Origin: Candidatus Omnitrophota bacterium
GTDB lineage: Bacteria > Omnitrophota > Gorgyraeia > Gygaellales > Profunditerraquicolaceae
Reading direction: 5' to 3'
NCBI GenBank assembly: GCA_028716245.1
Contig: JAQUQW010000004.1
Coordinates: 4,630-68,629, forward strand
Length of the DNA: 64,000 nt
Shown here in pieces: positions 1-53,039 of the stretch; within the stretch, counting starts at the first letter, position 1; each line of letters starts with the position of its first letter. The position numbers and the translations under genes are program-made. The notes below the pieces were generated by a model. That model had not been told where the DNA came from. It saw only the letters and a program-made list of their open reading frames with translations, and ran no database searches.

Positions 1-496
1 CCTGCGTTACGAATTTTCCTTCTCCGTGGGCAACCGGCAGATAAATTATTTTTCCCAGGCCCTTGGTCCAGACACATCGTCCGGCGGGTTTTAAATATAC
101 CCAACGATCCTCGAACTTTCCGGAATCATTGATAATTAAACTCGTTTCCTGCTTTGATTCTACGCTGGATGGTAATAAGCCGCTCTTAACCAAAATTTGA
201 AAACCGTTACAGATGCCAATAATCAATTTGCCATCATCGATAAATTTACGCAATGAATCGGCTAGTTTAAATCTTAATTCATTGGCAAATATTTTTCCTG
301 AGGCAATATCATCACCGTAGCTAAAGCCTCCGGGCAGAGCCAAAATACGGAAATCATCGAGGGTTCTTACGCCGCGAACCAAACTATTAATATGTAATAA
401 TTCAATCTTTGCTCCGGCGATCTTAAATGCCGCGGCAGTTTCCTGATCACAATTAGTCCCCGCGCTTCTTAAAACACAAACTTTAGGCGTTAGCAT
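1..496 (-). CDS. purQ: Phosphoribosylformylglycinamidine synthase I (PurQ, glutaminase subunit). The N-terminal ~165 aa are in the window and the C-terminus lies beyond position 1. ATG at 496 overlaps the LOG stop by 14 nt.
   Basis: Manual translation of the minus strand from 496 gives MLTPKVCVLRSAGTNCDQETAAAFKIAGAKIEL...LALPGGFSYGDD...GICNGFQIL...LPVAHGEGKF. These are class-I glutamine amidotransferase motifs typical of PurQ. The ORF track lists nothing here because the stop is outside the window. Confidence 0.8.
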   Translation of the reverse strand, partial: MLTPKVCVLRSAGTNCDQETAAAFKIAGAKIELLHINSLVRGVRTLDDFRILALPGGFSYGDDIASGKIFANELRFKLADSLRKFIDDGKLIIGICNGFQILVKSGLLPSSVESKQETSLIINDSGKFEDRWVYLKPAGRCVWTKGLGKIIYLPVAHGEGKFVTQ

Positions 497-1157
497 AGAA
501 TTTCTTGATTGCCGCGGCTACCTCTTGCGGCTTATCGACGATAATAAAGATATTCAGGTCTTCTTTACTGATATTACCGTGTTTATAAACCATGTCTTTT
601 AACCAGTCGATCAATCCTTTCCAATATTCGGAGCCCAGTAAAACAACCGGAAACTTAGAAATCCTTTGGGTCTGGATCAGGTTAATCGCCTCAAAAAATT
701 CATCCAGCGTGCCGTATCCGCCGGGCAAAATCACAAATGCCTTGGCGTATTTGACAAACATTACCTTCCGGATGAAGAAATAACGGAAATCCAGCAAGGT
801 ATCCACGTATTTATTCGGCTTCTGCTCGCAAGGTATATGTATATTTAACCCGATCGATTGGCCGCCGGCTCTTTTGGTTCCCCGGTTGGCTGCTTCCATT
901 AAGCCCGGGCCGCTTCCGGTAATTACCGCGTATCCTGCCTTGGCAATATAATAGGCCGTCTCTTCACCCAGCTTGTAAAATTTAGTATCCGGCTTGCTCC
1001 GCGCTGAACCAAAGATAGAAACTGCTCTTCCGATTTTCGAGAGGACTTCGAAGCCGTCAACAAACTCCGACATAATCCGAAATATCCGCCAGGTATCCTC
1101 CTGCGTAAAATCATCTCTTTCCAATAAACCATTGGGGCAAGCTTTAGCTTTTACCAT
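483..1157 (-). CDS. LOG-family protein (cytokinin riboside 5'-monophosphate phosphoribohydrolase / nucleotide 5'-monophosphate nucleosidase family; TIGR00730-like).
   Basis: 224 aa with the LOG signature PGGYGTLDE, GGGxG-like SGPGLMEA and an Rossmann-like N-terminus. Its 7-nt overlap with the purL stop and 14-nt overlap with the purQ start indicate translational coupling inside the pur operon. Confidence 0.8.
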   Translation of the reverse strand: MVKAKACPNGLLERDDFTQEDTWRIFRIMSEFVDGFEVLSKIGRAVSIFGSARSKPDTKFYKLGEETAYYIAKAGYAVITGSGPGLMEAANRGTKRAGGQSIGLNIHIPCEQKPNKYVDTLLDFRYFFIRKVMFVKYAKAFVILPGGYGTLDEFFEAINLIQTQRISKFPVVLLGSEYWKGLIDWLKDMVYKHGNISKEDLNIFIIVDKPQEVAAAIKKFYANA

Positions 1158-4048
1158 TTTAACGGCTCCTTCCAGGTTTCTTTTAACTTATTAATATCGG
1201 CATCCAGGCAAACTTTTCCGTCTAAACCAAATATTTTAAAATCAGGTCTCTTGGTTAAACACCCTGCCAGGCCAAAAGAAGCGCCTTTTAAAAGTCTTTC
1301 AAATTCTTTTTGGCTGGCCTTCTCCACCTCCACCACAAAACGGGAGTTTGACTCTGAAAAAAGCAGAAAATCATTGCGCTTATCAGGCGACTGATAGGGA
1401 GCCTCTGCCAAAAATATTTCCATGCCTAAGCCGCCGCTAAAAGCAACTTCAGCCAAAGCCACAGCCAAGCCTCCGTCAGAGCAATCGTGCATCGACTTAA
1501 CCAAACCTTTTTCTGTTGCCTTACTCAAGGCGCTAAAAGTTTTCTTTGCATCCTGATGATAAACCTTGGGCACTTGGTTCCCCACTGCCTTGTATAAATC
1601 ATAATAATGCGAGCCGCCTAATTCATCGCGGGTCTTACCCACGACATAAATTAAATTACCGGCTTCTTTGGCATACATCGACACTGCTTTATTCACATCA
1701 TCCATGACGCTGATTGCCGAAATCAGCAGCGTGCCCGGAATCGGCGTAGATTTACCGTGCACGTTGAACTCGTTATAAAAGCTATCCTTTCCCGAAATAA
1801 ACGGCAGGCCATAAGCTTTGGCGGTATGATAACAGCCGTAAGCCGCGCGGACCAAGCCGCCTAAGCGATCCGGCTTATCGGGATTACCCCAGCAAAAATT
1901 ATCCAGAATCGCTACCTCTTTTAATGAACCGCCCACGCTGATAATCTGGCGCAAGGCCTCATCAATACAGGAAGCCGCCATCCAGTAAGGATCGATAAAA
2001 CCAAAACGAAAATTTATGCCGTTAGAAATAATGATCCCTTTATTGGAATCAAATAACGGCTTGGTTACACTGGCATCGCTTGGCCCATCATTTTGAAGTC
2101 CGGCCAAAGGTTTGATAATCGAGCCGCCCTGCACTTCATGATCGTATTGACGCACCACCCATTCTTTAGAGCAAATATCATAATGGGCGAGCAGTTTTAA
2201 TAAATCCACGGTAAAATTTTTCTTTTCAGTAATCTTTGGTTCCCTGTGTTTGCTTTGGATGTAAACTGCTTTCTTAGCAATCTGCGGTATGCCTTCATGT
2301 AAAAAATGCATATCCAAATCGCAAACCAGATTATCCTGATAAAAAAGCTCTAATCTTTTGGTGCCGGTAAACTCTCCGATTACCGCGGCGCGGACATTTT
2401 CATTGGCAAATATACTAATTAACTTTTCGATATTTTTAGGCGGGACTGAAATTACCATTCTTTCCTGCGACTCAGAAATCCAGATCTCCATATAAGAAAG
2501 GCCGGAATATTTTAAAGGGACACGATCCAAATAAACCTTGGCCCCTAACTCCGCCCCCATCTCTCCTACCGCGCTGGACAATCCCCCTGCTCCGCAATCG
2601 GTAACGGCGGTGTATAAATTCTGTTCGCGCGCCTGTAAAATCGTATCCAAAACCTTTTTTTCTTCAATGGGATTGCCAATTTGCACTGCGCCGCTGGAAA
2701 CAGTTTCCGATTCATGGGTCAGCTCACCCGAAGAAAAAGTTGCTCCGTGAATTCCGTCGCGGCCGGTTGCCCCGCCTACCACTACAATTAAATCTCCTTT
2801 ATTTGTTTGCTTGAAAGATTTATCTTTGGGAATAATTCCCACTGTGCCGCAATAGACCAGCGGATTGCCCGCAAAGTGTTCATGGAATAATATCGCGCCA
2901 TTTACCGTGGGAATTCCCATTTTATTTCCATAATCACGCACTCCGCTGACTACCCCCTTCATCACCCGCTTAGGATGCAATGAACCAACCGGAACCTTGT
3001 TAAACGCCAGATCCGGAGGAGCAAAACAAAATATATCGCTGTTTAAAATCGGCTTTGCCCCCAGCCCGGTGCCCATGGAATCACGGATTACTCCGCCGAT
3101 ACCGGTATTTGCCCCGCCAAAAGGCTCTAATGCCGAAGGATGATTGTGTGTTTCCACTTTAAAACAAATATTATTCTCTTTATCGAATTTAATTACTCCG
3201 GAGTTATCTTTAAATACGGAAACGCACCAATCCTTATTTAACTCCTTGGTGGCTTTCATAATTGTCGACTTAAGCAGGTTTTTGATCGCTGTGTTGCCAA
3301 GCGCGGGCGCGGCTTTACTTTCTTTATAAGCAATGTTGCCGCGGAAGGTTTTATGGTAGCAATGCTCAGACCAGGTTTGGGCGATTGTTTCCAATTCGCA
3401 GTCAGTGGGATTACGCTTGATCTTACGGAAATAATCCCGGATCTGGCGCATCTCATTTAAATTTAAAAATAGCTGGCCCTTTTTACTAAGCTCTAAAAGT
3501 TTAGCATCCGTTGCCCCCAACAAATCTACCGTAATCAGATTAAACCGGTAGCCGGGCAGATGTTTGGTGTCCCCTTCAATAAGTCCGGGGCTGATTACAT
3601 GCTGGATAAGTTTGTTATAAAGAAGTTTTTCGGAAATGGTTTTTAGCTGGGAGGAAGAAAGCTTGCCGAAGATGATATATTTTTTCGCGGTCTTTACCGA
3701 TTCAACTGTGGTAATCCCTAAATCCCGGATACCTTTTAAAACTGATGCCTCAACCGGATCCATTACTCCCGGGTTATAGACGACCTCGACAATATGCTGA
3801 TTGGCTTTAAGAGAATTATCTGACTGATCAGATAAGATTTTGTAATCCTGCGCGACTTTATCCGTTAAAAGCTCCTGGCAGATACTTATAATTTGGCCTT
3901 GCGCTAAATTACCTTCTAAAGTATAAGCCTGGATAAACCTCACCTCTTTTACGTCGGCAATCCCCAGGTCAAAAATATCCTTGGCTACAGCCGCCCCGAC
4001 AGCGTCAAAAATACCGGGCTTATCCACTACTTCGATTTTGTACCGCAT
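1151..4048 (-). CDS. purL: Phosphoribosylformylglycinamidine synthase II (small-type PurL) with two tandem N-terminal PurS-like domains (PurS-PurS-PurL fusion), 965 aa.
   Basis: Residues 1-~80 (MRYKIEVVDKPGIFDAVGAAV...VRFIQAYTLEG) and ~85-165 (HIVEVVYNPGVMDPVEASVLKGIRDLGI...KKYIIFGKL) each match the PurS fold pattern V.V..KPGV.DP.G.AV...L..LG...V..VR.GK. The remainder is typical FGAM synthetase II (AIR-synthase-related domains; GGANTGIGGVIRD, paired PurM-like repeats). Confidence 0.9.
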   Translation of the reverse strand: MRYKIEVVDKPGIFDAVGAAVAKDIFDLGIADVKEVRFIQAYTLEGNLAQGQIISICQELLTDKVAQDYKILSDQSDNSLKANQHIVEVVYNPGVMDPVEASVLKGIRDLGITTVESVKTAKKYIIFGKLSSSQLKTISEKLLYNKLIQHVISPGLIEGDTKHLPGYRFNLITVDLLGATDAKLLELSKKGQLFLNLNEMRQIRDYFRKIKRNPTDCELETIAQTWSEHCYHKTFRGNIAYKESKAAPALGNTAIKNLLKSTIMKATKELNKDWCVSVFKDNSGVIKFDKENNICFKVETHNHPSALEPFGGANTGIGGVIRDSMGTGLGAKPILNSDIFCFAPPDLAFNKVPVGSLHPKRVMKGVVSGVRDYGNKMGIPTVNGAILFHEHFAGNPLVYCGTVGIIPKDKSFKQTNKGDLIVVVGGATGRDGIHGATFSSGELTHESETVSSGAVQIGNPIEEKKVLDTILQAREQNLYTAVTDCGAGGLSSAVGEMGAELGAKVYLDRVPLKYSGLSYMEIWISESQERMVISVPPKNIEKLISIFANENVRAAVIGEFTGTKRLELFYQDNLVCDLDMHFLHEGIPQIAKKAVYIQSKHREPKITEKKNFTVDLLKLLAHYDICSKEWVVRQYDHEVQGGSIIKPLAGLQNDGPSDASVTKPLFDSNKGIIISNGINFRFGFIDPYWMAASCIDEALRQIISVGGSLKEVAILDNFCWGNPDKPDRLGGLVRAAYGCYHTAKAYGLPFISGKDSFYNEFNVHGKSTPIPGTLLISAISVMDDVNKAVSMYAKEAGNLIYVVGKTRDELGGSHYYDLYKAVGNQVPKVYHQDAKKTFSALSKATEKGLVKSMHDCSDGGLAVALAEVAFSGGLGMEIFLAEAPYQSPDKRNDFLLFSESNSRFVVEVEKASQKEFERLLKGASFGLAGCLTKRPDFKIFGLDGKVCLDADINKLKETWKEPLKW

Positions 4049-4081
4049 ATTTAACGAGGTTTAAAAAAGGTGAGGGCTAAA

Positions 4082-5374
4082 TTATAATCCGACCTTCACA
4101 AAGATTTTATTAACGTTGCGTAAGTAAAAATCCAAATCGAATAGCTTATCCATTTCTTTGGAACCTAAATATTTGGCGGCTTGCGGTAAAGCTAAAAGGT
4201 TATCCTTAAAATTACCGGAGCCCTTCCAGGTTTGCATGGCTGCCTGCTGCACCAGATCATAGGCCTTGGTTCTTTCTAAGCCTTTATTCATTAAAGCAAT
4301 CAAAACACGCTGTGAAAAAATCAGGCCGCCTGTTTTGGCAAGGTTAGCCAGCATATTATCCGGATAGACCTTCATCCCGGAAACTACTTCCGTAAATTTA
4401 TTCAGCATATAATCCAAGGCTAAAGTGGAATCCGGAAAAATTATCCGCTCAACCGAAGAGTGGCTGATATCGCGTTCATGCCAAAGCGCCACATTTTCTA
4501 ATGCCACCTGGGCATTGGCGCGCAAGAGGCGGGCTAAACCGCAGATACGTTCGCAGATTACCGGATTGCGTTTATGCGGCATAGCGCTGGATCCCTTCTG
4601 CCCTTTGCCAAATGGTTCTTCAACTTCTAAAACTTCGGTCTTCTGCAGGTGCCTGATTTCAGTAGCGAATTTTTCTAATGAGGCGCCGATTACCGCCAGA
4701 GTGGCCATATATTGTGCGTATACATCCCGTTGTATTACCTGTGTGGCAATATTCACCGGCTCAAGGCCAAGTTTCTTACAGACATAAGCTTCAACATAAG
4801 GCTCAATATTGGAATAGGTGCCGACTGCTCCGGATAATTTTCCTAAGCAAGCCCCTTCTTTGGCGGATTTTAACCGGGCTAAATTCCGTCTGCTTTCATC
4901 AAACCAGAGCGCCAGCTTTAAACCAAAGGTTGTCGGCTCAGCATGCACCCCATGCGTGCGGCCGATACAAGCCATATCTTTATAAGTTCTAGCTTTCTTT
5001 GCCAAAACTTTGAGTAATTTTTCTAAATCTTCGATTAATATATCAGAAGCACTTTTTATTTGCACGCCTAGGGTAGTATCCAAGATATCGGAGGAGGTCA
5101 GGCCCATATGCAGGTATTGGGCGTCTTTACCTATATATTGGGCTACATTGGAAACAAACGCCACAACATCATGTTGTGTCTTCTCTTCGATTTTCCGGAT
5201 TTCAGACAGGTTAAATTTGGCTTTTTGTTTGATGCGTTTTACTGCTTGCGGCGGGACGATTTTTTTGGCAGCGTAAGCCTCAAGCGCGAGTATCTCGATG
5301 GCAAGCATAGTCTTAAACTTAAACTCCTCCTGCCAGATACTCTTCATTTTCGCCAGGCTGTAACGCTCAATCAT
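4082..5374 (-). CDS. purB: Adenylosuccinate lyase (PurB). The start is corrected to the internal ATG (MIERYSLAKM...). The ORF-track start at 5464 adds a spurious 30-aa N-extension.
   Basis: Fumarate-lyase family signature GSSAMPHKRNP. The N-terminus MIERYS matches the canonical PurB start. A GGGGG RBS lies 7 nt upstream of the ATG at 5374. Confidence 0.9.
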   Translation of the reverse strand: MIERYSLAKMKSIWQEEFKFKTMLAIEILALEAYAAKKIVPPQAVKRIKQKAKFNLSEIRKIEEKTQHDVVAFVSNVAQYIGKDAQYLHMGLTSSDILDTTLGVQIKSASDILIEDLEKLLKVLAKKARTYKDMACIGRTHGVHAEPTTFGLKLALWFDESRRNLARLKSAKEGACLGKLSGAVGTYSNIEPYVEAYVCKKLGLEPVNIATQVIQRDVYAQYMATLAVIGASLEKFATEIRHLQKTEVLEVEEPFGKGQKGSSAMPHKRNPVICERICGLARLLRANAQVALENVALWHERDISHSSVERIIFPDSTLALDYMLNKFTEVVSGMKVYPDNMLANLAKTGGLIFSQRVLIALMNKGLERTKAYDLVQQAAMQTWKGSGNFKDNLLALPQAAKYLGSKEMDKLFDLDFYLRNVNKIFVKVGL

Positions 5375-5554: not shown

Positions 5555-6676
5555 ATGTTAAAAATTTTACGCAATAAGAAAACCGCGAAAAAAGTCTGGA
5601 TTGGCCTGGCCATAATTATTATCCCTGCCTTTGCGCTTTGGGGATTTGGAGGGGCATTCCGCAGTAAAGAAGAAACTGCCGCTGTCGGAAGGATCTTTGG
5701 CCATAATGTCTCAAATCTTGAGTTTAAAGAATCCCTCTCAGCCGTAAGAACCTCCGCTACTATGCAATTCGGAGACAAACTCCCGGAGATTGAGAAATAC
5801 TTAAACTTACAGGCGCAAGCCTGGCAGAGGTTAATCCTTTTGCATGAAGCAAAAGTACGTAAAATCACCGTAAGCGACAAAGAGGTTATCAGCACAATTC
5901 AAAGCTCCCCTTATTTTCAGGACAAATACGGCTTTAGCAATAAGGTTTATGTTGAAACCTTGCGTTATGTCTTTAGGCTGCAGCCGCGCATCTTTGAGGA
6001 ACAGATGCGCCAGAGTCTAACCCTGGCTAAACTTTACGATCAGGTAACTAAAGATGTAAAATTAAGCGATGAACAGATCCGCCAGAAATACACAGAAGTC
6101 AATCAAGAATTAAACATCCATTATATTGCCAGCTTATTTTCCGACTTTGCCGCAAAAATTAAACCCACTGATAAAGAAATCGCTTCTTTCTTTGACAAAA
6201 ATAAAGCTATGTTTAAAGAACCTCCGGCTAAAGATAAACCGGCGCGGATTCCGGAGTTAGCCGAGATTAAGGACAAAGTTAAAGACGCTTTAATCAAAGA
6301 AGGGGCTAAAAAAACAGCAGAGGATAAAATAAAGGAATGCGCGGAAATTCTAAAAAAGGAGGAATTTATTCAGGCAGCCAAAGCCAGCGGCCTGAAAACC
6401 GGCCAAACCGCCTTCTTCAAATCCAGCGGCCAGATCGAAAACCTGGGAGCTGCGGAAATTTTCTGGAATACCGCCAAAAAGCTAAAAGATAAAGAGCTAA
6501 GCAGTACGCTTTCTAATGAAAAGGGCTATTATATTATCAAGCTGGGTTTGATTAAACCTATCGAAGAAGCTAAATTCGCCAAGGAAAAACAGGAATTTAG
6601 CCAGAAATTAATCTCTGAAAAGAAAAGCGAAGTTTTTGGTAAGTTTACTGAAGAGTTAATTAAAAAGGCGCAATAA
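5555..6676 (+). CDS. Membrane-anchored periplasmic chaperone of the PpiD/SurA-N-terminal-domain family. It lacks the parvulin PPIase domain.
   Basis: N-terminal TM helix (WIGLAIIIIPAFALWGF), then a SurA_N-like region with PpiD-like layout (V.G..I....F, ...SPYFQDKYGFSNKVY...). The 373-aa length, against ~620 aa for PpiD, implies no rotamase domain. Confidence 0.55.
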   Translation: MLKILRNKKTAKKVWIGLAIIIIPAFALWGFGGAFRSKEETAAVGRIFGHNVSNLEFKESLSAVRTSATMQFGDKLPEIEKYLNLQAQAWQRLILLHEAKVRKITVSDKEVISTIQSSPYFQDKYGFSNKVYVETLRYVFRLQPRIFEEQMRQSLTLAKLYDQVTKDVKLSDEQIRQKYTEVNQELNIHYIASLFSDFAAKIKPTDKEIASFFDKNKAMFKEPPAKDKPARIPELAEIKDKVKDALIKEGAKKTAEDKIKECAEILKKEEFIQAAKASGLKTGQTAFFKSSGQIENLGAAEIFWNTAKKLKDKELSSTLSNEKGYYIIKLGLIKPIEEAKFAKEKQEFSQKLISEKKSEVFGKFTEELIKKAQ

Positions 6677-6688
6677 AAGGGGATTATA

Positions 6689-6739
6689 AATACGACCCTG
6701 TTTCCCAGCCAATCGGGAAACAGGGTCGTATTTATTTGG
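6689..6739. terminator. Bidirectional rho-independent terminator between convergent genes: 17-bp perfect stem ATACGACCCTGTTTCCC / GGGAAACAGGGTCGTAT with an 8-nt loop, and T/A runs on both sides.
   Basis: Sequence aaatacgaccctgtttccc-agccaatc-gggaaacagggtcgtatttatttgg, read directly. Confidence 0.7.
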
Positions 6740-6749
6740 CTTTACTTAA

Positions 6750-6932
6750 TTAGCTTACTTTTATTGCGTTAACCGGGCAAGAATCGGCTACTTCCTGTAA
6801 ATTACAGCTTGCGCAAGTTTGCGCCTTAACATGGGCAATCCCGTCACCCTGCACTTCAAAAACATCCGGGCATGACTGCTCGCATAAACCGCATCCTACG
6901 CAAGTAGAAGCATCAACCGTGACCTTTGACAT
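6750..6932 (-). CDS. Small [4Fe-4S]/[3Fe-4S] ferredoxin (60 aa).
   Basis: CVGCGLCEQSCP plus a second CASC...CP motif. This is the single-cluster Desulfovibrio/Pyrococcus-type layout. Confidence 0.8.
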   Translation of the reverse strand: MSKVTVDASTCVGCGLCEQSCPDVFEVQGDGIAHVKAQTCASCNLQEVADSCPVNAIKVS

Positions 6933-6949
6933 ATTCGTTCTCCCTTTTA

Positions 6950-9770: not shown

Positions 9771-10322
9771 TTATCCTTTTAGTTTATTTTTAACAAATTC
9801 AAAACCTTCTTTAACTGCCTGGATATTGCCTTCCTGGGCCTTACCCTTAAAACGATTTTTGACTACCGCGATAAGATTATCTAATTTTAATTCTCCGGTA
9901 GCCGCGGCGAATGCCCCGATTAAAGCGGTATTGCCTAACGGCCGGCCGATGTTTTTTAAAGCAATTTCATTAGCCGGGACTACAAAGACTTTTTGCTTGG
10001 CTTTTAATTTGGGCAGCTCCAGGTCTTCTTTGCCGTTAATAATCGCTACCCCATCATCCTTTAATCCGGAAAAACAGTTATAACCGCGCATAAGGGTCGG
10101 ATCAACGATAATTACGTAGTCAGGCTCATAAATCTGGCTGCGCAGACGCACCGGGTCAGTATCTACGCGCACAAAGGCGTTCATCGGCGCCCCCATCCGG
10201 GCTGCTCCGAAGTTGGGAAAGGCATAAGGGTATTTACCTTCGTTAAAGTAGCTAAACCCTAACAATGCCGCGGTAGTGATTGCGCCCTGGCCGGCGCGGG
10301 CATGGATTCTGATTTCTTTCAT
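9771..10322 (-). CDS. porG: POR gamma subunit.
   Basis: HARAGQGAITTAALLG motif typical of the 2-oxoacid:acceptor oxidoreductase gamma subunit. Gene order gamma-delta-alpha-beta. Confidence 0.85.
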   Translation of the reverse strand: MKEIRIHARAGQGAITTAALLGFSYFNEGKYPYAFPNFGAARMGAPMNAFVRVDTDPVRLRSQIYEPDYVIIVDPTLMRGYNCFSGLKDDGVAIINGKEDLELPKLKAKQKVFVVPANEIALKNIGRPLGNTALIGAFAAATGELKLDNLIAVVKNRFKGKAQEGNIQAVKEGFEFVKNKLKG

Positions 10323-10370
10323 ATTATTCTTTCTTGTGCCACTGTGAAAATCGCCAAAAGCGATTTCTTG

Positions 10371-10398
10371 ATTATATAGCTTATACTGGTTTTGTCAA
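10371..10398 (-). promoter_or_regulatory. Putative sigma70 promoter for porGDAB: TTGACA -16- TATAAT. The 5'UTR then carries a 7-bp hairpin (AAATCGC/GCGATTT).
   Basis: Minus strand TTGACAaaaccagtataagctaTATAATcaagaaatcgcttttggcgattttcac. Confidence 0.45.
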
Positions 10399-10409
10399 AT
10401 AGTTTATTT

Positions 10410-23199: not shown

Positions 23200-23217
23200 T
23201 GCTAAACCTCCCTTTTA

Positions 23218-23261
23218 TTAGGGACAGCGACCATTTTTACAAAAATGGTCGCTGTCCCTAA
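23218..23261. repeat. Perfect 21-bp inverted repeat (hairpin) in the ilvN-ilvC spacer: TTAGGGACAGCGACCATTTTT-ac-AAAAATGGTCGCTGTCCCTAA.
   Basis: Read directly. There is no downstream U-run on the coding (minus) strand, and the ilvC RBS (GGGAGG) follows. Confidence 0.6.
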
Positions 23262-23265
23262 TTAA

Positions 23266-28397: not shown

Positions 28398-28410
28398 TTT
28401 GATTCATCTC

Positions 28411-28496
28411 CTTGCCCACAAGGGCACACCCGCATTATAATCCGCCACGAGGCGGATACTGGCGCAATTCAATTAAGCGCCAGGTAGCGCGGGGCG
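28411..28496. repeat. REP-like GC-rich palindromic element, long variant: CTTGCCCACAAGGGCACACCCGC ... GCGCGGGGCG, with internal hairpins CCGCC-acga-GGCGG and CTGGCGC-aattcaattaa-GCGCCAG.
   Basis: It shares its flanks with the copies at 30729 and 36724. It lies in the aldolase-pfkA spacer. Confidence 0.5.
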
Positions 28497-28499
28497 CTA

Positions 28500-30715: not shown

Positions 30716-30728
30716 TACTTATCCTCTC

Positions 30729-30775
30729 TTGCCCGCACGGGCACACCCGCGCAATTCCTTATAAGCGCGGGGTGT
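30729..30775. repeat. REP-like palindromic element CTTGCCCGCACGGGCACACCCGCGCAATTCCTTATAAGCGCGGGGTG in the metK-ahcY spacer.
   Basis: 10-bp stem ACACCCGCGC/GCGCGGGGTG with a 13-nt loop. It is nearly identical to 36724-36755. Confidence 0.5.
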
Positions 30776-30777
30776 CA

Positions 30778-31947
30778 TTATAAACAACTGGCTTGCTTTT
30801 TCAAAATTTGCACCTTGTCCGCCTTCTCCCACAGAAATTCCGGCTCCGGCCTGCCAAAATGCCCGTAGCTGGCGGTCTTCCTATATATGGGGCGGCGTAA
30901 CCTCAATGAATCAATAATTCCTTTAGGCCTAAGCTGGAAATTCTGCCTAACCAGCTTAACCAAAGCCTCCTCCGGAACAACCGATGTCCCTTCGGTCTTG
31001 ACCATAACCGACAAAGGATCCGCGTGGCCGATCACATAAGCAAGCTGAATAAGGCATTTATCCGCCAGACCGGCTGCCACGATATTTTTAGCGATATAAC
31101 GGCACATATACGCTGCGGATCGGTCAACTTTAGTCGGATCCTTGCCGGAAAATGCCCCGCCGCCATGCGCAACTGCTCCGCCATAAGTATCCACAATTAT
31201 TTTTCTTCCGGTCATACCCGTATCGGATTGCGGCCCGCCGACTACAAATTTACCCGTCTGATTAACATAATATTTGGTACCTTTATCCACCCAGCCGCGA
31301 AGTACGGGTCCGGCAACCTGGCGGATAATCTCCTGGCGCGCTTTTTCAGTAATACGTTTGCCGCTTCGATCCAAGATATCCTCGGTATGCTGTGAAGCTA
31401 AAACTACCGAATCAACCCGCACGGGTTTACCACAATCATACTCAACAGTAACCTGGGTTTTGCCGTCCGGGCCAAGATATTTTAAAATATTATTTTTACG
31501 GACCTCGGTCAAGCGCATCGCCAGCTTCTGCGCTAACATCAAAGCCAGCGGCATTAATTCCTCGGTCTCATTACAAGCATAACCAAACATTATCCCCTGG
31601 TCTCCGGCTCCGCCGACATCAACCCCTTGCGATATATCCGGTGACTGGGAATGGATGGCATTAAGAATAGCGCAGGTATGAAAATCAAACCCGTATTTAG
31701 GATGATTATAACCTATTTCTTCAATTATCTTCCTGCCTATATCATGCACATGTATAAAACCGCGCGTGGTAATTTCACCCCCCACGATCAAAAGCCCCAT
31801 GGTTACGTAAGTTTCGCAGGCTACGCGCGAATAAGGATCACTTTTTAAACAGGCATCCAGGACCCCATCTGAGATCTGATCACATAACTTATCCGGATGG
31901 CCTTCGGTTACTGACTCTGAAGTAAAATAAAACTTCGACGCCGACAT
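30778..31947 (-). CDS. metK: S-adenosylmethionine synthetase. The start is corrected to ATG ([20 protein letters not shown]) with an AGGAGGA RBS. The ORF-track TTG start at 31971 is spurious.
   Basis: [24 protein letters not shown] signatures. Confidence 0.95.
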
Positions 31948-36687: not shown

Positions 36688-36723
36688 GATACCTATCGCG
36701 CACCGACGTCCTCTACCAAGAGG

Positions 36724-36755
36724 ACACCCGCGCAATACCTTATAAGCGCGGGGTG
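36724..36755. repeat. REP-like palindrome ACACCCGCGCAATACCTTATAAGCGCGGGGTG between tRNA-Leu and tRNA-Gly (followed by CTTTTTG on the plus strand).
   Basis: It matches the 30743-30775 copy with two loop substitutions. Confidence 0.45.
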
Positions 36756-36785
36756 CTTTTTGCTACTCGGGTGCTGCAAGTTTCT

Positions 36786-43840: not shown

Positions 43841-43919
43841 GGACCGTTTCTATTTTTCTCGGGTCTATGCTAGAAAAATAGAAACGGTCCCTTTTATTCC
43901 CTTTTATTCCCTTTTATTC
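43840..43919. terminator. Bidirectional terminator: 18-bp stem GGGACCGTTTCTATTTTT / AAAAATAGAAACGGTCCC with a 16-nt loop, followed by a 3x tandem CCTTTTATT repeat.
   Basis: Read directly. It lies between the convergent lpxB and M48 peptidase genes. Confidence 0.7.
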
Positions 43920-48429: not shown

Positions 48430-49528
48430 ATTTTTTTGGTTTCTTTGTTGCCTGCATTAATTTTACAAACTCAGCGAATAAATACCCTGCATCATGCGGG
48501 CCGGGGGATGCCTCAGGATGAAACTGCACGGAAAATAAAGGCAGCTTTTTATGGCGTAAACCCTCTGAGGTGCCGTCATTTAAATTCACATGAGTCAACT
48601 CAATATCTTTTTTATTTAAAGAGTTGATATCCACGCAAAACCCGTGATTCTGACTGGTTATCGAAACTTTACCCGTCCTTAAATCTTTTACCGGATGGTT
48701 TGCCCCGTGATGGCCAAATTTAAGTTTATAAGTTTTACCGCCTAAAGCCAGCCCGAGCATCTGGTGCCCCAGGCAGATCCCAAAAATCGGAACTCGGCCG
48801 ATGAGATTGGCCACTGTTTCAATCACATAACCCACGGCAGCCGGGTCTCCGGGGCCGTTAGAAAGCAAAACTCCGTCGGGATTTTCCTCAAGGATCTCTT
48901 GATAAGTTGCCTGCGCGGGCACGACCGTAACATTGCATTTATGGCGGCTTAATTCCCTCAAGGTATTGAACTTTACCCCGCAGTCTAAAACAACTACTTT
49001 ATAGCGGTTGTCTTTGGATTGCGCATACACATATTTCTGGGCAATGGCCACGTCTTTAACCAAGTCCAGGCCCACTAGCCCCCGGCTTTGCTTTGCCTTA
49101 TTCACCAGGCTCCGCGCATCAGAATCCTGCGTAGACAAAACCGCTTTCATCGCGCCTTTTTCTCTTATATACAAAGTCAACGCGCGCGTATCAATTCCTT
49201 CAATTGCCAAAATATTATTTTCTTTTAAATACTCTCCCAGTTCCTGGTTACTTCTCCAATTACTGGCAATCTTACTATACTCTTTAACTACAAAACCTTC
49301 TAAAAAAGGCCGGCGGCTCTCCGCGTCCTCCTTATTGATTCCATAATTACCGATCAAAGGATAAGTCATGGCCACGATCTGACCCTTATAGGAGGGATCG
49401 GTAATGATCTCCTGATATCCGGCCATACTGGTATTAAAAACAACTTCCCCCGTAATCTGGCCGCTGGCGCCAAAAGAGAGGCCCTCAAACACTGTGCCGT
49501 CTTCTAAAGCAAGAAATGCCTGCATCAT
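48413..49528 (-). CDS. carA: Carbamoyl-phosphate synthase small (glutaminase) subunit.
   Basis: GICLGHQ catalytic Cys motif and the CPSase_sm N-domain. 371 aa. Confidence 0.95.
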
Positions 49529-51129
49529 TATTTTTTTTCTGCGGCGGCGCGGATAAACTCCCTAAACAAAGGATGCGCCGCATCGGGTTTGGATTTAAAT
49601 TCGGGGTGAAATTGCACGGCAATAAAATATGGATGATTTTTCAATTCCACAATCTCAACCAAATTCTTCTTCTGGTAAATCCCGGAAAAAACTACTCCTT
49701 TACATTCTAATCTTTTACGGAATTTGTTATTAAACTCATACCGGTGGCGGTGGCGCTCAAAAATAAGGCTTTTCTTATAAATCCTGGCAGCTAAAGTATT
49801 CTTTTTTATTTTACAGGGATAGGCGCCCAGGCGCATTGTCCCTCCCATATCCTTAATATTTTTCTGTTCAACTAAAAGGCTGATTACGGGGTTCTTGGCT
49901 TTGGGTTTAAATTCAGTGGAATTGGCATCCGCTAAACCGCAGATAGCGCGCGCAAAATCCATCACCGCGCACTGCATCCCCAAACAAATCCCTAAGAAAG
50001 GAATTTTATTTTTTCGCGCAAAGCCAACCGCCTTAATCTTGCCTTCGATCCCCCTGCACCCAAAACCTCCGGGCACTAAAATTGCATCTATTCCGGCCAA
50101 CAGCTTCTCCGCGCCATGCTTTTCAATATCTTCAGAGTCAATCTTTTTAACCTCTACTTTTACCTGATTGCTGATGCCTCCGTGGGTAATTGCTTCGTAA
50201 ATGGATTTATAAGCATCCTGCAGGCCGATATATTTACCCACCACCGCCACCTGGACTGTTTTTCGCGGAGATAACAGGCGTTCGACCACATTCTTCTCCC
50301 AATCCTTTAAATCGGATGGCTTGGAAATTAAACCAAAGTGGCTTAAGATTATTTCATCGAGGATCTGGCCCTTAAAAACCAACGGCACCTGATAAATCGA
50401 TTCCACATCGCGGGACTCAATAACCGCTTCCTTCCTCACATTGCAAAATAAAGATATTTTTTCCTTAACCTCATCGGAAAGAGTTTTTTCAGTGCGGCAG
50501 ATCAATATATCCGGCTGGATACCGATCTGGCGTAACGTTTGCACGCTGTGCTGCGTGGGCTTGGTTTTTATCTCATCGGCAACCTTAATGTAAGGAACCA
50601 GGGTAAGATGGATATAGAGGACATTTTTTTCTCCGGCATCCACCTCAAACTGCCGGGCCGCCTCCAGGAAAGGAAGGCTTTCGATATCACCAACCGTGCC
50701 GCCTATCTCAATCAATATAATATCCGCCCGGCTGACTTCCGCAACCTTCTTGATCCTATTTTTTATTTCACCGGTAATATGCGGGATAACCTGGATAGTT
50801 TTCCCTAAATAATCCCCTCTGCGCTCACGCGAAATTACCGCGTTGTAAACCTGGCCGGTAGTGGCATTATTAAACTTGGTCATCGCCGCTTTGGTAAATC
50901 TTTCGTAATGGCCTAAGTCCAGGTCGGTTTCCGCCCCGTCATCGGTAACATAGACCTCCCCGTGCTGATAAGGGTTCATTGTCCCCGGATCAACATTAAT
51001 ATAAGGATCCAGTTTCATTAAGGTGACTTTGAGGCCGCGGGATTCCAGGATTTTAGCGATCGAGGCGGAAGCGATTCCCTTGCCTAAGCTCGAGATAACG
51101 CCGCCGGTGATAAAGATATATTTACTCAT
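49528..51129 (-). CDS. pyrG: CTP synthase.
   Basis: N-terminal [11 protein letters not shown] and the C-terminal GATase GICLGMQ. Confidence 0.95.
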
Positions 51130-51191
51130 ATTTTACGTGAAGAAGGCGTTTGGTGCCGGCAATCCGGCTCCTAAACGCCTTTGTTTTATTA

Positions 51192-51220
51192 ACTATAACA
51201 AAAGCGTTTAAGAATGTCAA
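51192..51220 (-). promoter_or_regulatory. Putative sigma70 promoter TTGACA -17- TATAGT for pyrG-carA-carB'.
   Basis: Minus strand TTGACAttcttaaacgcttttgtTATAGTtaat, ~60 nt upstream of the pyrG ATG. Confidence 0.45.
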
Positions 51221-51284
51221 ACTATTTTTAAAACCTAATACTGCGCGGGTCCTGCCTTTAGCGTCTGTCTTGTCTTGTTTCCTC

Positions 51285-51400
51285 GCGCACCGCTTGCCCC
51301 GCCCCGGCGAGGCGGGGCTGCGCTCGGCCAGAATTTTGCGCTCTGCCAAGCTTCGTAGATAGCCGGGCATCCGTGCCCGCGCAAAATTCTCACGTGCGCT
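51285..51400. repeat. GC-rich block of nested REP-like palindromes.
   Basis: CCCGCC-ccggcga-GGCGGG; 12-bp arms AGAATTTTGCGC ... GCGCAAAATTCT enclosing GGGCA-tccg-TGCCC; GCGCAC ... GTGCGC. It shares the CCGCGCAA(A)TTC motif with the REP-like copies at 28424, 30743 and 36724. No plausible ORF. Confidence 0.4.
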
Positions 51401-51441
51401 CGGAACCAAGCCAAGCCATCCGCTAATACTATATACATAAA

Positions 51442-51655
51442 TGACACTGACAAGTTTCGCAGCGAGTGTCGATTTTAGCCAATGGAGCTTGAGCGAGGAT
51501 ACCCCAAGGCCAACCTTTAGGTTGGCAATCTTGGGATGGCGATGCTGTTTGAGTGGTTTTTGCTAGAGCAAAAACCACGAGTTCAGCAGCCACCGAAATG
51601 CGAAAGACCATTGGCGTTAAGAAATCGACCTCGAGCGAGAAACTTGTCGGGGTCA
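51442..51655. repeat. 214-nt imperfect palindrome (candidate MITE/ERIC-like element or long-hairpin sRNA).
   Basis: ~35-nt arms TGACACTGACAAGTTTCGCAGCGAGTGTCGATTTT(AGCCAATGG) / (CCATTGGCG...)GAAATCGACCTCGAGCGAGAAACTTGTCGGGGTCA. Internal hairpins CCCAAGG[CCAACC-ttta-GGTTGG]caatCTTGGG (51503-51535) and perfect GTGGTTTTTGC-taga-GCAAAAACCAC (51553-51578). Confidence 0.5.
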
Positions 51656-51707
51656 CCTGTAACAGCGCAGGGCGAAAAATTTCAGCGACGGAAGCAAAAG
51701 ATGGAAA

Positions 51708-53039
51708 TCAAACTAAACGCAAATACTCCTTGCCTTCCTTCCAGGGATTGAGGTAACGCTCAATACTCAGACTGTTATCCTGGACCAGATCAACTACGCG
51801 TTTTTTATCTAGGGGTGAGATAATCTCGACTTTTGGCCGCCGGATGTCGGATTCATTTTCATCTTTAACTAATGCAATACTCCCATCATTTAACGCCACG
51901 ATCGAACCAACCGGCCAGAGGCCCATAAATCGAAAAAATTTATCCAGTAACTCCTGATCAAAAGAAGCGCCTCCCTCTTTATTCATTATATTATAGACCA
52001 CGTCAGGAGAATAATCCTGTTTATAGCCCCTTCTTTGGGAAAGGGCATCATAGACATCGCAGATAGAAACAATCCGGGAAGCAATATGCTGCTTTCTTAA
52101 TAAGGGCATCCGGGGGTAACCGGAGGAATCATATTTTAAATGGTGCTCAAAGCTGACGACCACAGGCAAGAGGCCCAAAGTATCTACATATTTAAGCATT
52201 ATCTCCGCCCCCATAATCGTGTGGCTGCGAATACGCCCAAACTCCTGGTCCGTAAGCTTATCGGGTTTATGCAGTATTTTACGCGAAATGAATAGCTTGC
52301 CGATATCATGGAACATGGCGGCAACGCCGATATTTAAAACATCGCTCTTGTCAAAACCCAGGCGCGAAGAAAAATACATGGAAAGAATAGAAACATTGAG
52401 CATATGGATATAGGTCTCCATATCGTATCTTTTTACCGTAGCCAGCTTAAGCAGCTCCTGGCGCTGCGTGCTTAAATTTTCCATAATATTACCCATGGAA
52501 AGTTTAAGCGCAAGATGGTCGATCTTTTCAAAATTAAGCACTCCGCTTAAAGCCTGATTAATCTTATCCGCGGAAGAATCATAAAGACTGCGTTGAGCCG
52601 GGCCAACATCAGCCTTATCTTTTTCGGACCCAACCTTAAGCTTGCCTATATTAATATGCTGGATACCGGCAAGGTTAAGCATCTCCTGAAGATCCCCTTT
52701 AAAATCTTCTTTGGGCCGGGCGATAAATTCGATGAATATGCCCAGCTCATCTTTACTTAACCCGCGCAAAAAAGCAAGCCTTTCGATATTTCTTTCTTTT
52801 AAATATAAGATCGCCGGGCGCAGAAATTTACTCAGATCAAAAAAGATCTCCTTTTCAAAAGCCAGGTCCTCTCCGACAATTCCAATGATCATCTCCTGGC
52901 GCTCTGCCAGGACATCCTCAAAAGACGCATAGGCGCTATCCAAAGACCTGGTAAACATAGGATGCTTCAGGCCGTACATCTTATAAGCCTGAAGACAGGT
53001 AAGTAAACTTTTAAAAGCCGCCTCAATATTAGAAAACAT
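51708..53039 (-). CDS. HD-GYP domain protein (predicted c-di-GMP phosphodiesterase) with a ~190-aa N-terminal domain of unknown function.
   Basis: HD motif (AAMFHDIGK), HHLKYDSSGYP (HD-GYP signature), SICDVYDAL. Confidence 0.8.
   Translation of the reverse strand: MFSNIEAAFKSLLTCLQAYKMYGLKHPMFTRSLDSAYASFEDVLAERQEMIIGIVGEDLAFEKEIFFDLSKFLRPAILYLKERNIERLAFLRGLSKDELGIFIEFIARPKEDFKGDLQEMLNLAGIQHINIGKLKVGSEKDKADVGPAQRSLYDSSADKINQALSGVLNFEKIDHLALKLSMGNIMENLSTQRQELLKLATVKRYDMETYIHMLNVSILSMYFSSRLGFDKSDVLNIGVAAMFHDIGKLFISRKILHKPDKLTDQEFGRIRSHTIMGAEIMLKYVDTLGLLPVVVSFEHHLKYDSSGYPRMPLLRKQHIASRIVSICDVYDALSQRRGYKQDYSPDVVYNIMNKEGGASFDQELLDKFFRFMGLWPVGSIVALNDGSIALVKDENESDIRRPKVEIISPLDKKRVVDLVQDNSLSIERYLNPWKEGKEYLRLV

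Follow-up and report, generated by a model that had tools for sequence, protein, structure and literature searches.

Many intergenic repeats lie at the 3' ends of genes, are co-transcribed with them and influence the stability of messenger RNA (mRNA), and one of these, bcr1, carries compensatory changes (PMC3184786). This repeat of about 155 bp is dispersed between genes in the Bacillus cereus group, where its distribution is not conserved among related strains, and it has 5-bp direct repeats. The BOX elements of Streptococcus pneumoniae (boxA-boxB(n)-boxC) consist of variable modules with extensive secondary structure; they are co-transcribed with their neighbours, restricted to a clade, slow in turnover and hold spurious open reading frames (ORFs) (PMC3049150). 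Their modules measure 45-59 nt and are present in more than 100 copies per genome. ERIC and Correia elements, of the class of MITEs (miniature inverted-repeat transposable elements), are imperfect palindromes with terminal inverted repeats that lie at gene 3' ends, are co-transcribed, affect mRNA stability or processing, and vary in presence between relatives (PMC3184786). They are single hairpins of 104-157 bp, show duplication of a TA target and number in the tens to hundreds. The large RNAs of Rfam (OLE, GOLLD, ROOL, HEARO/omega RNA, raiA and 6S) are 200-450 nt long, with many covarying helices and conserved nucleotides in junctions and loops. Repetitive extragenic palindromic (REP) sequences are short GC-rich palindromes of about 35-40 nt with hundreds of copies, tied to a RAYT (IS200/IS605-like) transposase, and in the clusters called bacterial interspersed mosaic elements (BIMEs) they alternate in orientation. 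From the Omnitrophota, uncultivated ultra-small bacteria with compact genomes, very few non-coding elements have been described, and a literature search for Omnitrophota RNA motifs found nothing relevant. Here, an intergenic island of about 470 nt was analysed that lies between the CTP synthase gene pyrG and a gene for an HD-domain protein, within 64,000 nt of contig JAQUQW010000004.1 of a Candidatus Omnitrophota bacterium (the window). The island is one intact copy, in the order S-A-B, of a family of modular, rod-shaped, structured non-coding elements that is dispersed at low copy number in one Omnitrophota clade.

At 578 nt, the gap between the two genes is the largest in the window, where 17 gaps reach 60 nt or more, and its structure per nucleotide ranks among the highest of these. 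Its folding energy is -249.4 kcal/mol for the minus strand (z -10.4) and -235.5 kcal/mol for the plus strand (z -8.1), and none of 100 shuffled sequences folded as well on either strand. A first-pass annotation made from the letters alone had described an ORF-free island, richer in GC than its flanks, packed with nested inverted repeats and distinct from the pyrG leader. The GC content is indeed raised (0.51-0.57 over the island; 0.565 in 51200-51499 against 0.448 in the window), and inverted-repeat analysis recovered both the 214-nt palindrome (arms 51442-51458 and 51639-51655, 17 nt, 88% complementary) and the GC-rich hairpins. The alignment of relatives bears out the separation from the leader: promoter and leader of pyrG (51130-51220) are conserved separately, and the true island runs from about 51235 to 51707. 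The term ORF-free holds in so far as no coding signal was found, but mechanical ORFs of 41-95 amino acids (aa) overlap the island. Its parts and boundaries are as follows.

51663-51707, minus strand: module S, 45 nt, beginning directly after the stop codon of the HD-domain gene
51434-51658, minus strand: module A, a 225-nt rod with nine helices, 73 pairs and a forked tip, ends AATGNNNCTGNC...GNCAGNNNCATT; it corresponds to the 214-nt palindrome of the first-pass annotation
51553-51578, minus strand: hairpin of helix 7 in module A, GTGGTTTTTGC-TCTA-GCAAAAACCAC (inverted repeat I4)
51502-51535, minus strand: hairpin of helix 8/9 in module A, CCCAAGATTGCCAACC-TAAA-GGTTGGCCTTGGGG
51256-51425, minus strand: module B, a second rod of 170 nt, with an outer stem GCGGATGGCTTGGCTTGG / CAAGACAAGACAGACGC that has a mismatch every 5 nt and encloses two hairpins, one of them the GC-rich GCCCCGCC...GGCGGGGC; ends TAGCGGATGG...CCATCCGCTA
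51235-51255, minus strand: short linker that joins module B to A/T-rich sequence lying upstream of the pyrG promoter
Not in the window: module C, an alternative S...S' rod found in contigs L091, L096 and L105
51192-51220, minus strand: pyrG promoter TTGACA-17-TATAGT (11 of 12 matches, present as first annotated), conserved in L081-L089; outside the element, its downstream boundary
51145-51179, minus strand: pyrG leader hairpin GGCGTTTAGGAGCCGG...CCGGCACCAAACGCC followed by TTCTTCA, 16 pairs; outside the element
51708-53039, minus strand: HD_5/HD-domain protein gene, called HD-GYP in the first-pass annotation
49528-51129, minus strand: pyrG (PF06418/PF00117)

No island homologue was found at 80 pyrG loci of genome representatives, which at first suggested that the island was unique. 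This was overturned when metagenomes were scanned with a 23-base pattern taken from the positions common to both arms of the 214-nt palindrome. The pattern matched eight metagenome stretches, which align to window positions 51707-51261 at 78-91% identity, lack the HD-domain gene and pyrG, and have nothing in common with the window beyond the element. Further copies came from the contigs of 25 protein clusters retrieved with a 75-aa ORF that spans module A. The element is present in at least 10 other gene contexts on Omnitrophota metagenome contigs, flanked by differing housekeeping genes (folD/MTHFR, purD/Band_7, ORF6N/PEGA, leuS with a response regulator, rpsI/asd) or by the 3' ends of a GGDEF gene, purM and an amidohydrolase gene. 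Since copies exist in other gene contexts, the first-pass suggestion of a repeat or MITE-like insertion pointed in the right direction. The label MITE itself fits in part: the copies are dispersed and have terminal inverted repeats, but at 74-92% identity they are not the many identical copies that had been named as the mark of a repeat or MITE family. No match was obtained by blastn against phage and plasmid collections, nor in viral contigs scanned with the most conserved 22-mer of the family, CAAGCTSCWTTKGCTAAAATCG.

The copies differ in their make-up. The combination S-A-B occurs in the window and in L093, and in L097 with a truncated S; A-B is found in L090, L098 and L099, A-C in L091, L096 and L105, and A alone in L104, whereas in L100 no homologue of B aligns downstream of A. 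The spacer between A and B varies from 8 to about 70 nt. Because S, B, C and the spacer vary in this way, module A is the core of the family. Its helix 1 has 16 pairs, and its ends read TG...CA in 11 of the 11 copies, forming terminal inverted repeats as expected of a MITE; the flanks are A/T-rich (TTTA/TTAA-like) and also extend the stem (AATG...CATT). Module S has its homologue in the 5' arm of the S...S' rod of other copies (module C); to L091 583-627 it is 86.7% identical, inverted. It also looks like the complement of B's 3' arm, and S and S' form an inverted pair in L091 and L096. Module B ends with TAGCGGATGG...CCATCCG(C)TA in L099 and L091. The arms of its outer stem (51262-51291 and 51391-51420) are 5-nt periodic repeats, GGCTT three times against AAGAC three times, which place a purine-purine mismatch at each fifth position; the mismatch positions are kept with other bases in L094 and L098, and the stem of L099 is fully Watson-Crick. 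The linker is not conserved in other copies and holds CCCGCGCAGTA, which resembles half of a small CCCGCGC...GCGCGGG hairpin motif of the window.

The structure of module A is maintained by compensatory changes. For 11 copies RNAalifold returned 73 pairs in nine helices, and in the alignment (A3) 95.9% of the cells are standard pairs. Both sides have changed in 29 of the 73 pairs (85 cells), and none of 500 shuffles reached the observed value on any of five measures. The covariation score of 0.316 dropped to about 0.07, with pairing of 35-47%, when the 3' partners were slid by 1-3 columns. Helix 7 has double changes in six of its nine pairs, its stem being fully rewritten between copies (GTGGTTTTTGC, GTCCTATTTGC, GCCCTTTTTGT, CACTTCGGGC) while the flanking loops GAACTC and TCARACA are invariant. 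In helix 8/9 double changes affect 7 of 14 pairs, for example CCCAAG/CTTGGG versus CCCGAG/CTCGGG. Besides the two loops of helix 7, the invariant internal loops and junctions of A comprise TCGCT on both loop strands and GCTCAAGCT. Module B, compared in five copies, has 49 pairs with compensatory changes in 21. A covariance model of module A, designated R1, scored the window copy at 233 bits (E 1.5e-64). The assignment to one family and selection on its structure are regarded as firm.

A coding role of the island is effectively excluded. Pfam gave no match for six island ORFs, and the variable columns of module A are spread evenly over the codon positions (38/75, 38/74 and 43/74), without periodicity. 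An internal ATG in helix 4 has been replaced along with its pairing partner in three copies (L090, L096 and L097), and the ORFs of module B, of 9-23 aa, are not conserved. The 75-aa ORF across module A does retrieve 25 clusters of 'hypothetical proteins' of 59-121 aa (P0121-P0145; for example MDD5465710.1, L098 10001-10225), but because the sequence covaries and lacks codon periodicity, these are most likely gene-calling artefacts of module A. At least 25 public clusters are thus probably translations of a non-coding element, a case of mis-annotation.

Nor does the island belong to a known RNA family. A covariance scan of 50900-52000 against Rfam 15, with permissive filters on both strands, returned nothing at an E of 1 or better; at gathering score the whole window gave three tRNA matches only, and ARAGORN found no transfer-messenger RNA (tmRNA) in the window. 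This agrees with the first-pass search by eye, which had seen no RNase P, tmRNA or signal recognition particle RNA, and reclassification as a known RNA, which had been left as an option, is not borne out. A 6S-like long hairpin had also been proposed; the tip of the rod is forked into two hairpins, a central bubble is absent, and the 6S model was among those without a match. Several other candidates were rejected. A type I toxin (Ldr/Ibs-like) would require a small ORF, and none is conserved: codon periodicity is lacking and the ATG in helix 4 is not kept. A hairpin of B, GGGCA-CGGA-TGCCC, looks like a CsrA site, but its GGA is GGT in L093, L094, L097 and L098, which argues against a CsrA sponge. 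Another hairpin of B, with AGC and a bulge, is similar to domain V of group II introns; its lower helix has only 3 bp and Rfam gave no match. For a kink-turn at the TCGCT/TCGCT loop the register is unsuitable.

The number of copies per genome appears to be low. No part of the island recurs in the 64-kb window, and R1 found no copy beyond those already ascertained in 495 kb (the window, close relatives and about 430 kb of other loci), which indicates a low copy number. Four distinct copies were recovered from one Hainich groundwater sample at 11-13x coverage, and they are mosaics of each other: L090 and L097 are 98% identical in A and 91% in B, whereas L097 and L093 are 76% identical in A and 92% in B. 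Three of the groundwater contigs end at the same point within B. Together this suggests that several recombining copies are present per genome. In L094 and L096 the element occupies the same rpsI locus, with host DNA 78% identical, but is accompanied by B in one and by C in the other. The A modules of the window and of L099 are 76-81% identical, and the syntenic pur genes have 69-72% nucleotide identity. The syntenic region comprises L099 14222-19703 and window positions 89-5374; the copy of L099 lies at 9931-10400, between purD and the Band_7 gene, and the equivalent place in the genome of the window would be a few kb past the left end of the window.

The spacer between the HD-domain gene and pyrG was compared in contigs encoding the closest CTP synthases. 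These all come from Omnitrophota metagenome-assembled genomes, with up to 80% identity among species representatives and 95% among metagenomes; an exact sequence look-up of the HD-domain protein of the window found it not on record. The gap between the two genes is shorter in these relatives.

P0002 / L082: CTP synthase 93% identical, gap 265 nt
P0004: CTP synthase 91% identical, gap 136 nt
L083: CTP synthase 89% identical, gap 151 nt
L086 and L087: CTP synthase 90% identical, gap 216 nt

In the closest relative, L081 (CTP synthase 95%), entirely different genes lie upstream of pyrG. The pyrG promoter and leader hairpin are conserved in the alignment, all sequence upstream of the -35 box is unrelated, and R1 had no match in L081-L089. 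As only promoter and leader are shared with these relatives, the island is lineage-specific; its dispersed contexts together with its absence from the orthologous spacer are what a MITE would show. Sister lineages hold unrelated long palindromes in the same spacer (L086 3787-3899, 113 nt and near-perfect with 27-bp arms; L082 1056-1215), and four contigs (L084, L085, L088 and L089) begin 145-197 nt upstream of pyrG. Because of these palindromes and contig ends, the spacer is a hotspot for the insertion of differing hairpin elements, for plasticity and for assembly breaks, situated just upstream of the conserved pyrG promoter.

The position of the copies relative to genes favours transcription of the minus strand of the window. 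In the window, L093, L098, L100, L104 and L105, the stop codon of a gene with the same orientation precedes the start of the element by 0-45 nt, and about 8 of the 11 copies run in the direction of their upstream gene. Module A of L100 is preceded by a stop codon (6008) and followed by an intrinsic terminator (6297-6312), after which comes an 11/12 promoter of the next gene; this order places A inside a 3' untranslated region (3'-UTR). The copy of L098 is intercistronic, with folD on one side and the MTHFR gene on the other, and has no terminator. Upstream of A, no sigma-70-like promoter with at least 9 of 12 matches was found in the 11 copies, although a consensus scan may miss weak or alternative promoters. 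Terminators accompany only some copies; none was found at the window copy, and the HD-gene operon of the window has no canonical terminator. Promoter-like hexamers were noticed at the junction of A and B (window 51426-51453, minus strand, TTGTCA-16-TAGTAT; L098 10205-10233, ATGACA-17-TATAGT), with the -35 box within the 3' arm of A, from where they could drive B separately. As the register is not kept in other copies, a promoter at this junction was left unproven.

With moderate confidence, we take the element to be a low-copy, dispersed, structured repeat that shares its transcript with the upstream operon, has a role in cis, and whose modules are shuffled by recombination. Insertion, or recombination from another copy, would have brought it to the pyrG spacer; it would be transcribed as a long 3'-UTR when the HD-gene operon is read through, and the folded RNA may act on the HD-gene transcript by forming a barrier at its 3' end or a site of processing, or by serving as an insulator or terminator before the pyrG promoter. 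Copies would swap modules by recombination. The cis-acting role is the weaker step here, and several observations weigh against this explanation. We infer both the transcription of the element and its strand. The orientation of three to four copies (L099, L094/L096, L097) is opposite to that of the adjacent genes. The complement of A is more stable by 1.5-18 kcal/mol in 11 of the 11 copies, whereas B of the window prefers the minus strand. Neither a target-site duplication nor an empty-site pair nor a parent transposase was found, and support for the copy number within a genome is indirect, R1 having detected no extra copy. Conservation of A peaks at the centre, in the internal loops and the junction, and not at the termini, which looks more like a functional core of an RNA, or one that binds protein, than like a passive stabiliser or a transposon end. 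Wobble pairs in A are nearly symmetric (17 G-U versus 12 A-C cells), whereas the pyrG leader hairpin of the same genomes, as a control, has about 13 G-U and 1 A-C; selection on both strands or on DNA fits this better than selection on a single RNA strand. The symmetry itself fits a constraint at the level of DNA, transcription in both orientations with exchange between copies, and very strict Watson-Crick pairing. It could accordingly be the DNA that forms the selected fold, as single-stranded hairpins or cruciforms through which a trans-acting transposase or recombinase would mobilise the element, or which would serve some other DNA transaction; the element would then be mobile but non-autonomous, with its folds as recognition sites. 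Nearly pure Watson-Crick pairing (734 of 783 cells), the almost equal folding of both strands, the TG...CA termini within terminal inverted repeats and their A/T-rich flanks, the polymorphic presence of the element, the contigs that break within it and the differing palindromes of L086 (113 nt) and L082 in the same spacer are all in keeping with such a role. We nevertheless judge it unlikely: no transposase, recombinase or reverse transcriptase adjoins any of about 12 copies (the pattern scans, which are not an exhaustive search, gave only non-autonomous copies), target-site duplications are not clear, the centre is better conserved than the ends, a 225-nt multi-helix fold with a conserved three-way tip far exceeds known DNA recognition hairpins, and symmetric wobble may also result if copies are transcribed either way and exchange sequence.

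The central conservation favours another reading, in which the copies form a gene family for a structured RNA acting in trans, with A as the functional core (a protein scaffold, catalytic or regulatory), B or C as accessories and one to a few paralogues per genome. This we hold as a tentative alternative to the co-transcribed repeat. It would account for loops and junctions that are invariant while the adjacent helices are rewritten by compensatory changes, for a nucleotide conservation exceeding that of neighbouring protein genes, for the low copy number and for the retention at the rpsI locus across genomes with 78% identical host DNA; there, the copies of L094 and L096 converge with rpsI and are followed on their own strand by a terminator with a T-run. 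The 25 ORF clusters, set against about 22 CTP synthase clusters (at least 84% identity), also roughly fit one to a few copies per genome. An independent RNA gene should have its own promoter and terminator and tolerate G-U pairs on one strand. No promoter was detected in 11 copies even though the clade has near-consensus sigma-70 promoters, terminators are not general, and the G-U and A-C counts are symmetric. The element is also missing from the orthologous spacer of the closest relatives, varies in composition (A alone in L104, A with B, A with C) and matches no Rfam family. It is doubtful, though possible, that A, with B or C as accessories, represents a new class of large functional RNA specific to the clade; its invariant loops would be bound by a dedicated protein or make up a core with a catalytic or regulatory function, and its few paralogues per genome would move or recombine between loci. 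A BIME-like cluster of REP elements, which the first-pass annotation had listed, is very improbable. The island does contain GC-rich hairpins and pieces like half-sites of a small REP-like motif, which itself occurs at three other intergenic sites of the window and in L001; but its units are multi-helix rods of 170-225 nt and not of about 35 nt, the window holds no second copy of any of them, nhmmer with the small motif misses the island, and the homologues elsewhere are full-length modules. Scarcely credible is a decayed pseudogene, the last of the listed options, or a gene for a small protein (a type I toxin, for instance), for which the 75-aa ORF with its 25 database 'homologues' and the extra genes that relatives carry upstream of pyrG (an FAD oxidoreductase in L001, a methyltransferase in L081) might speak. 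Comparison of these genes with the island by tblastn gave noise only (E 0.1 or worse), and no trace of them is left; Pfam has no match, variation shows no excess at third positions, the loss of the internal ATG goes along with a compensating change of its partner, and the frame through helix 7 is rewritten by covariation.

If the element is such a co-transcribed repeat, its closest counterparts in behaviour would be the transcribed intergenic repeats bcr1, BOX, ERIC and Correia, to which the proposed cis-acting 3'-UTR is likened. Its copies lie between genes at 3' ends, as these repeats do, with transcription presumed, and the structure of A and B is kept by compensatory changes. With bcr1 it shares the dispersed intergenic location and a distribution that is not conserved among relatives; it is, however, three times larger, multi-modular (S, A, B or C), apparently low in copy number, without clear direct-repeat flanks and endowed with a strongly conserved central core, and there is no sequence similarity. 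Variable modules, extensive secondary structure, clade restriction, spurious ORFs and, putatively, co-transcription with neighbours and slow turnover recall BOX, but the Omnitrophota modules measure 45-225 nt and occur in few copies. To our knowledge, covariation of such depth has not been reported for BOX. The imperfect palindromes with terminal inverted repeats at gene 3' ends, variable in presence between relatives and possibly affecting mRNA stability or processing after co-transcription, resemble ERIC and Correia; those are single hairpins, whereas here a forked rod is followed by a second rod, and no TA duplication could be demonstrated. Five features set the element apart from transcribed repeats: modules of 170-225 nt, the forked rod, the depth of covariation, the central conservation and the low copy number. 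In its size, its many covarying helices and its conserved junction and loop nucleotides it is like the large RNAs of Rfam, but it differs from them in having no match in Rfam 15, no promoter of its own and a variable locus and modules, and, unlike HEARO/omega RNAs, it is not adjoined by an IscB/TnpB-like gene. The element belongs to no named family and is a real candidate for a structured family that is uncatalogued in Rfam 15: a composite of about 470 nt in which compensatory evolution maintains about 120 base pairs. With the covariance model and the 22-mer, the family can be mapped and metatranscriptomes can be inspected.

Downstream of the element, the pyrG promoter and leader hairpin are conserved down to 80% CTP synthase identity. 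The hairpin contains AGGAG, about 40 nt ahead of the ATG; no obvious ribosome-binding site is seen at the start codon, and in L001 a T-run follows the hairpin. It had no Rfam match, and may be an attenuator or a translational control element.

Other structured features were noted in the window. The small GC-rich hairpin motif mentioned above lies at:

30728-30778, minus strand: hairpin motif CACCCCGCGC-TTATAAGGWATT-GCGCGGGTG
36708-36759, minus strand: the same motif
28398-28499, minus strand: variant with two extra hairpins nested in its loop
L001 3562-3611: the same motif

These sites are intergenic, in one case between tRNA genes, and a second, variable hairpin comes after the motif. L001, with only 80% identity in CTP synthase, has an almost identical motif and also carries related hairpins in a 300-nt array that lies upstream of its pyrG promoter. 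In its behaviour the motif is like a REP sequence, and it differs from the island family. Within the 273-nt 'gap' at 6677-6949 there is an ORF of 60 aa (6750-6932, minus strand) with two CxxCxxCxxxCP-like motifs (MSKVTVDASTCVGCGLCEQSCP...CASCNLQEVADSCP), from which it is probably a small ferredoxin; the very stable hairpin that follows is probably a terminator shared with the convergent gene at 5555-6676. Near-perfect hairpins of 19-21 bp occupy the spacers 23200-23265 and 43841-43913 (z -13 and -7), the latter between convergent genes, and are probably terminators or further small palindromic elements.

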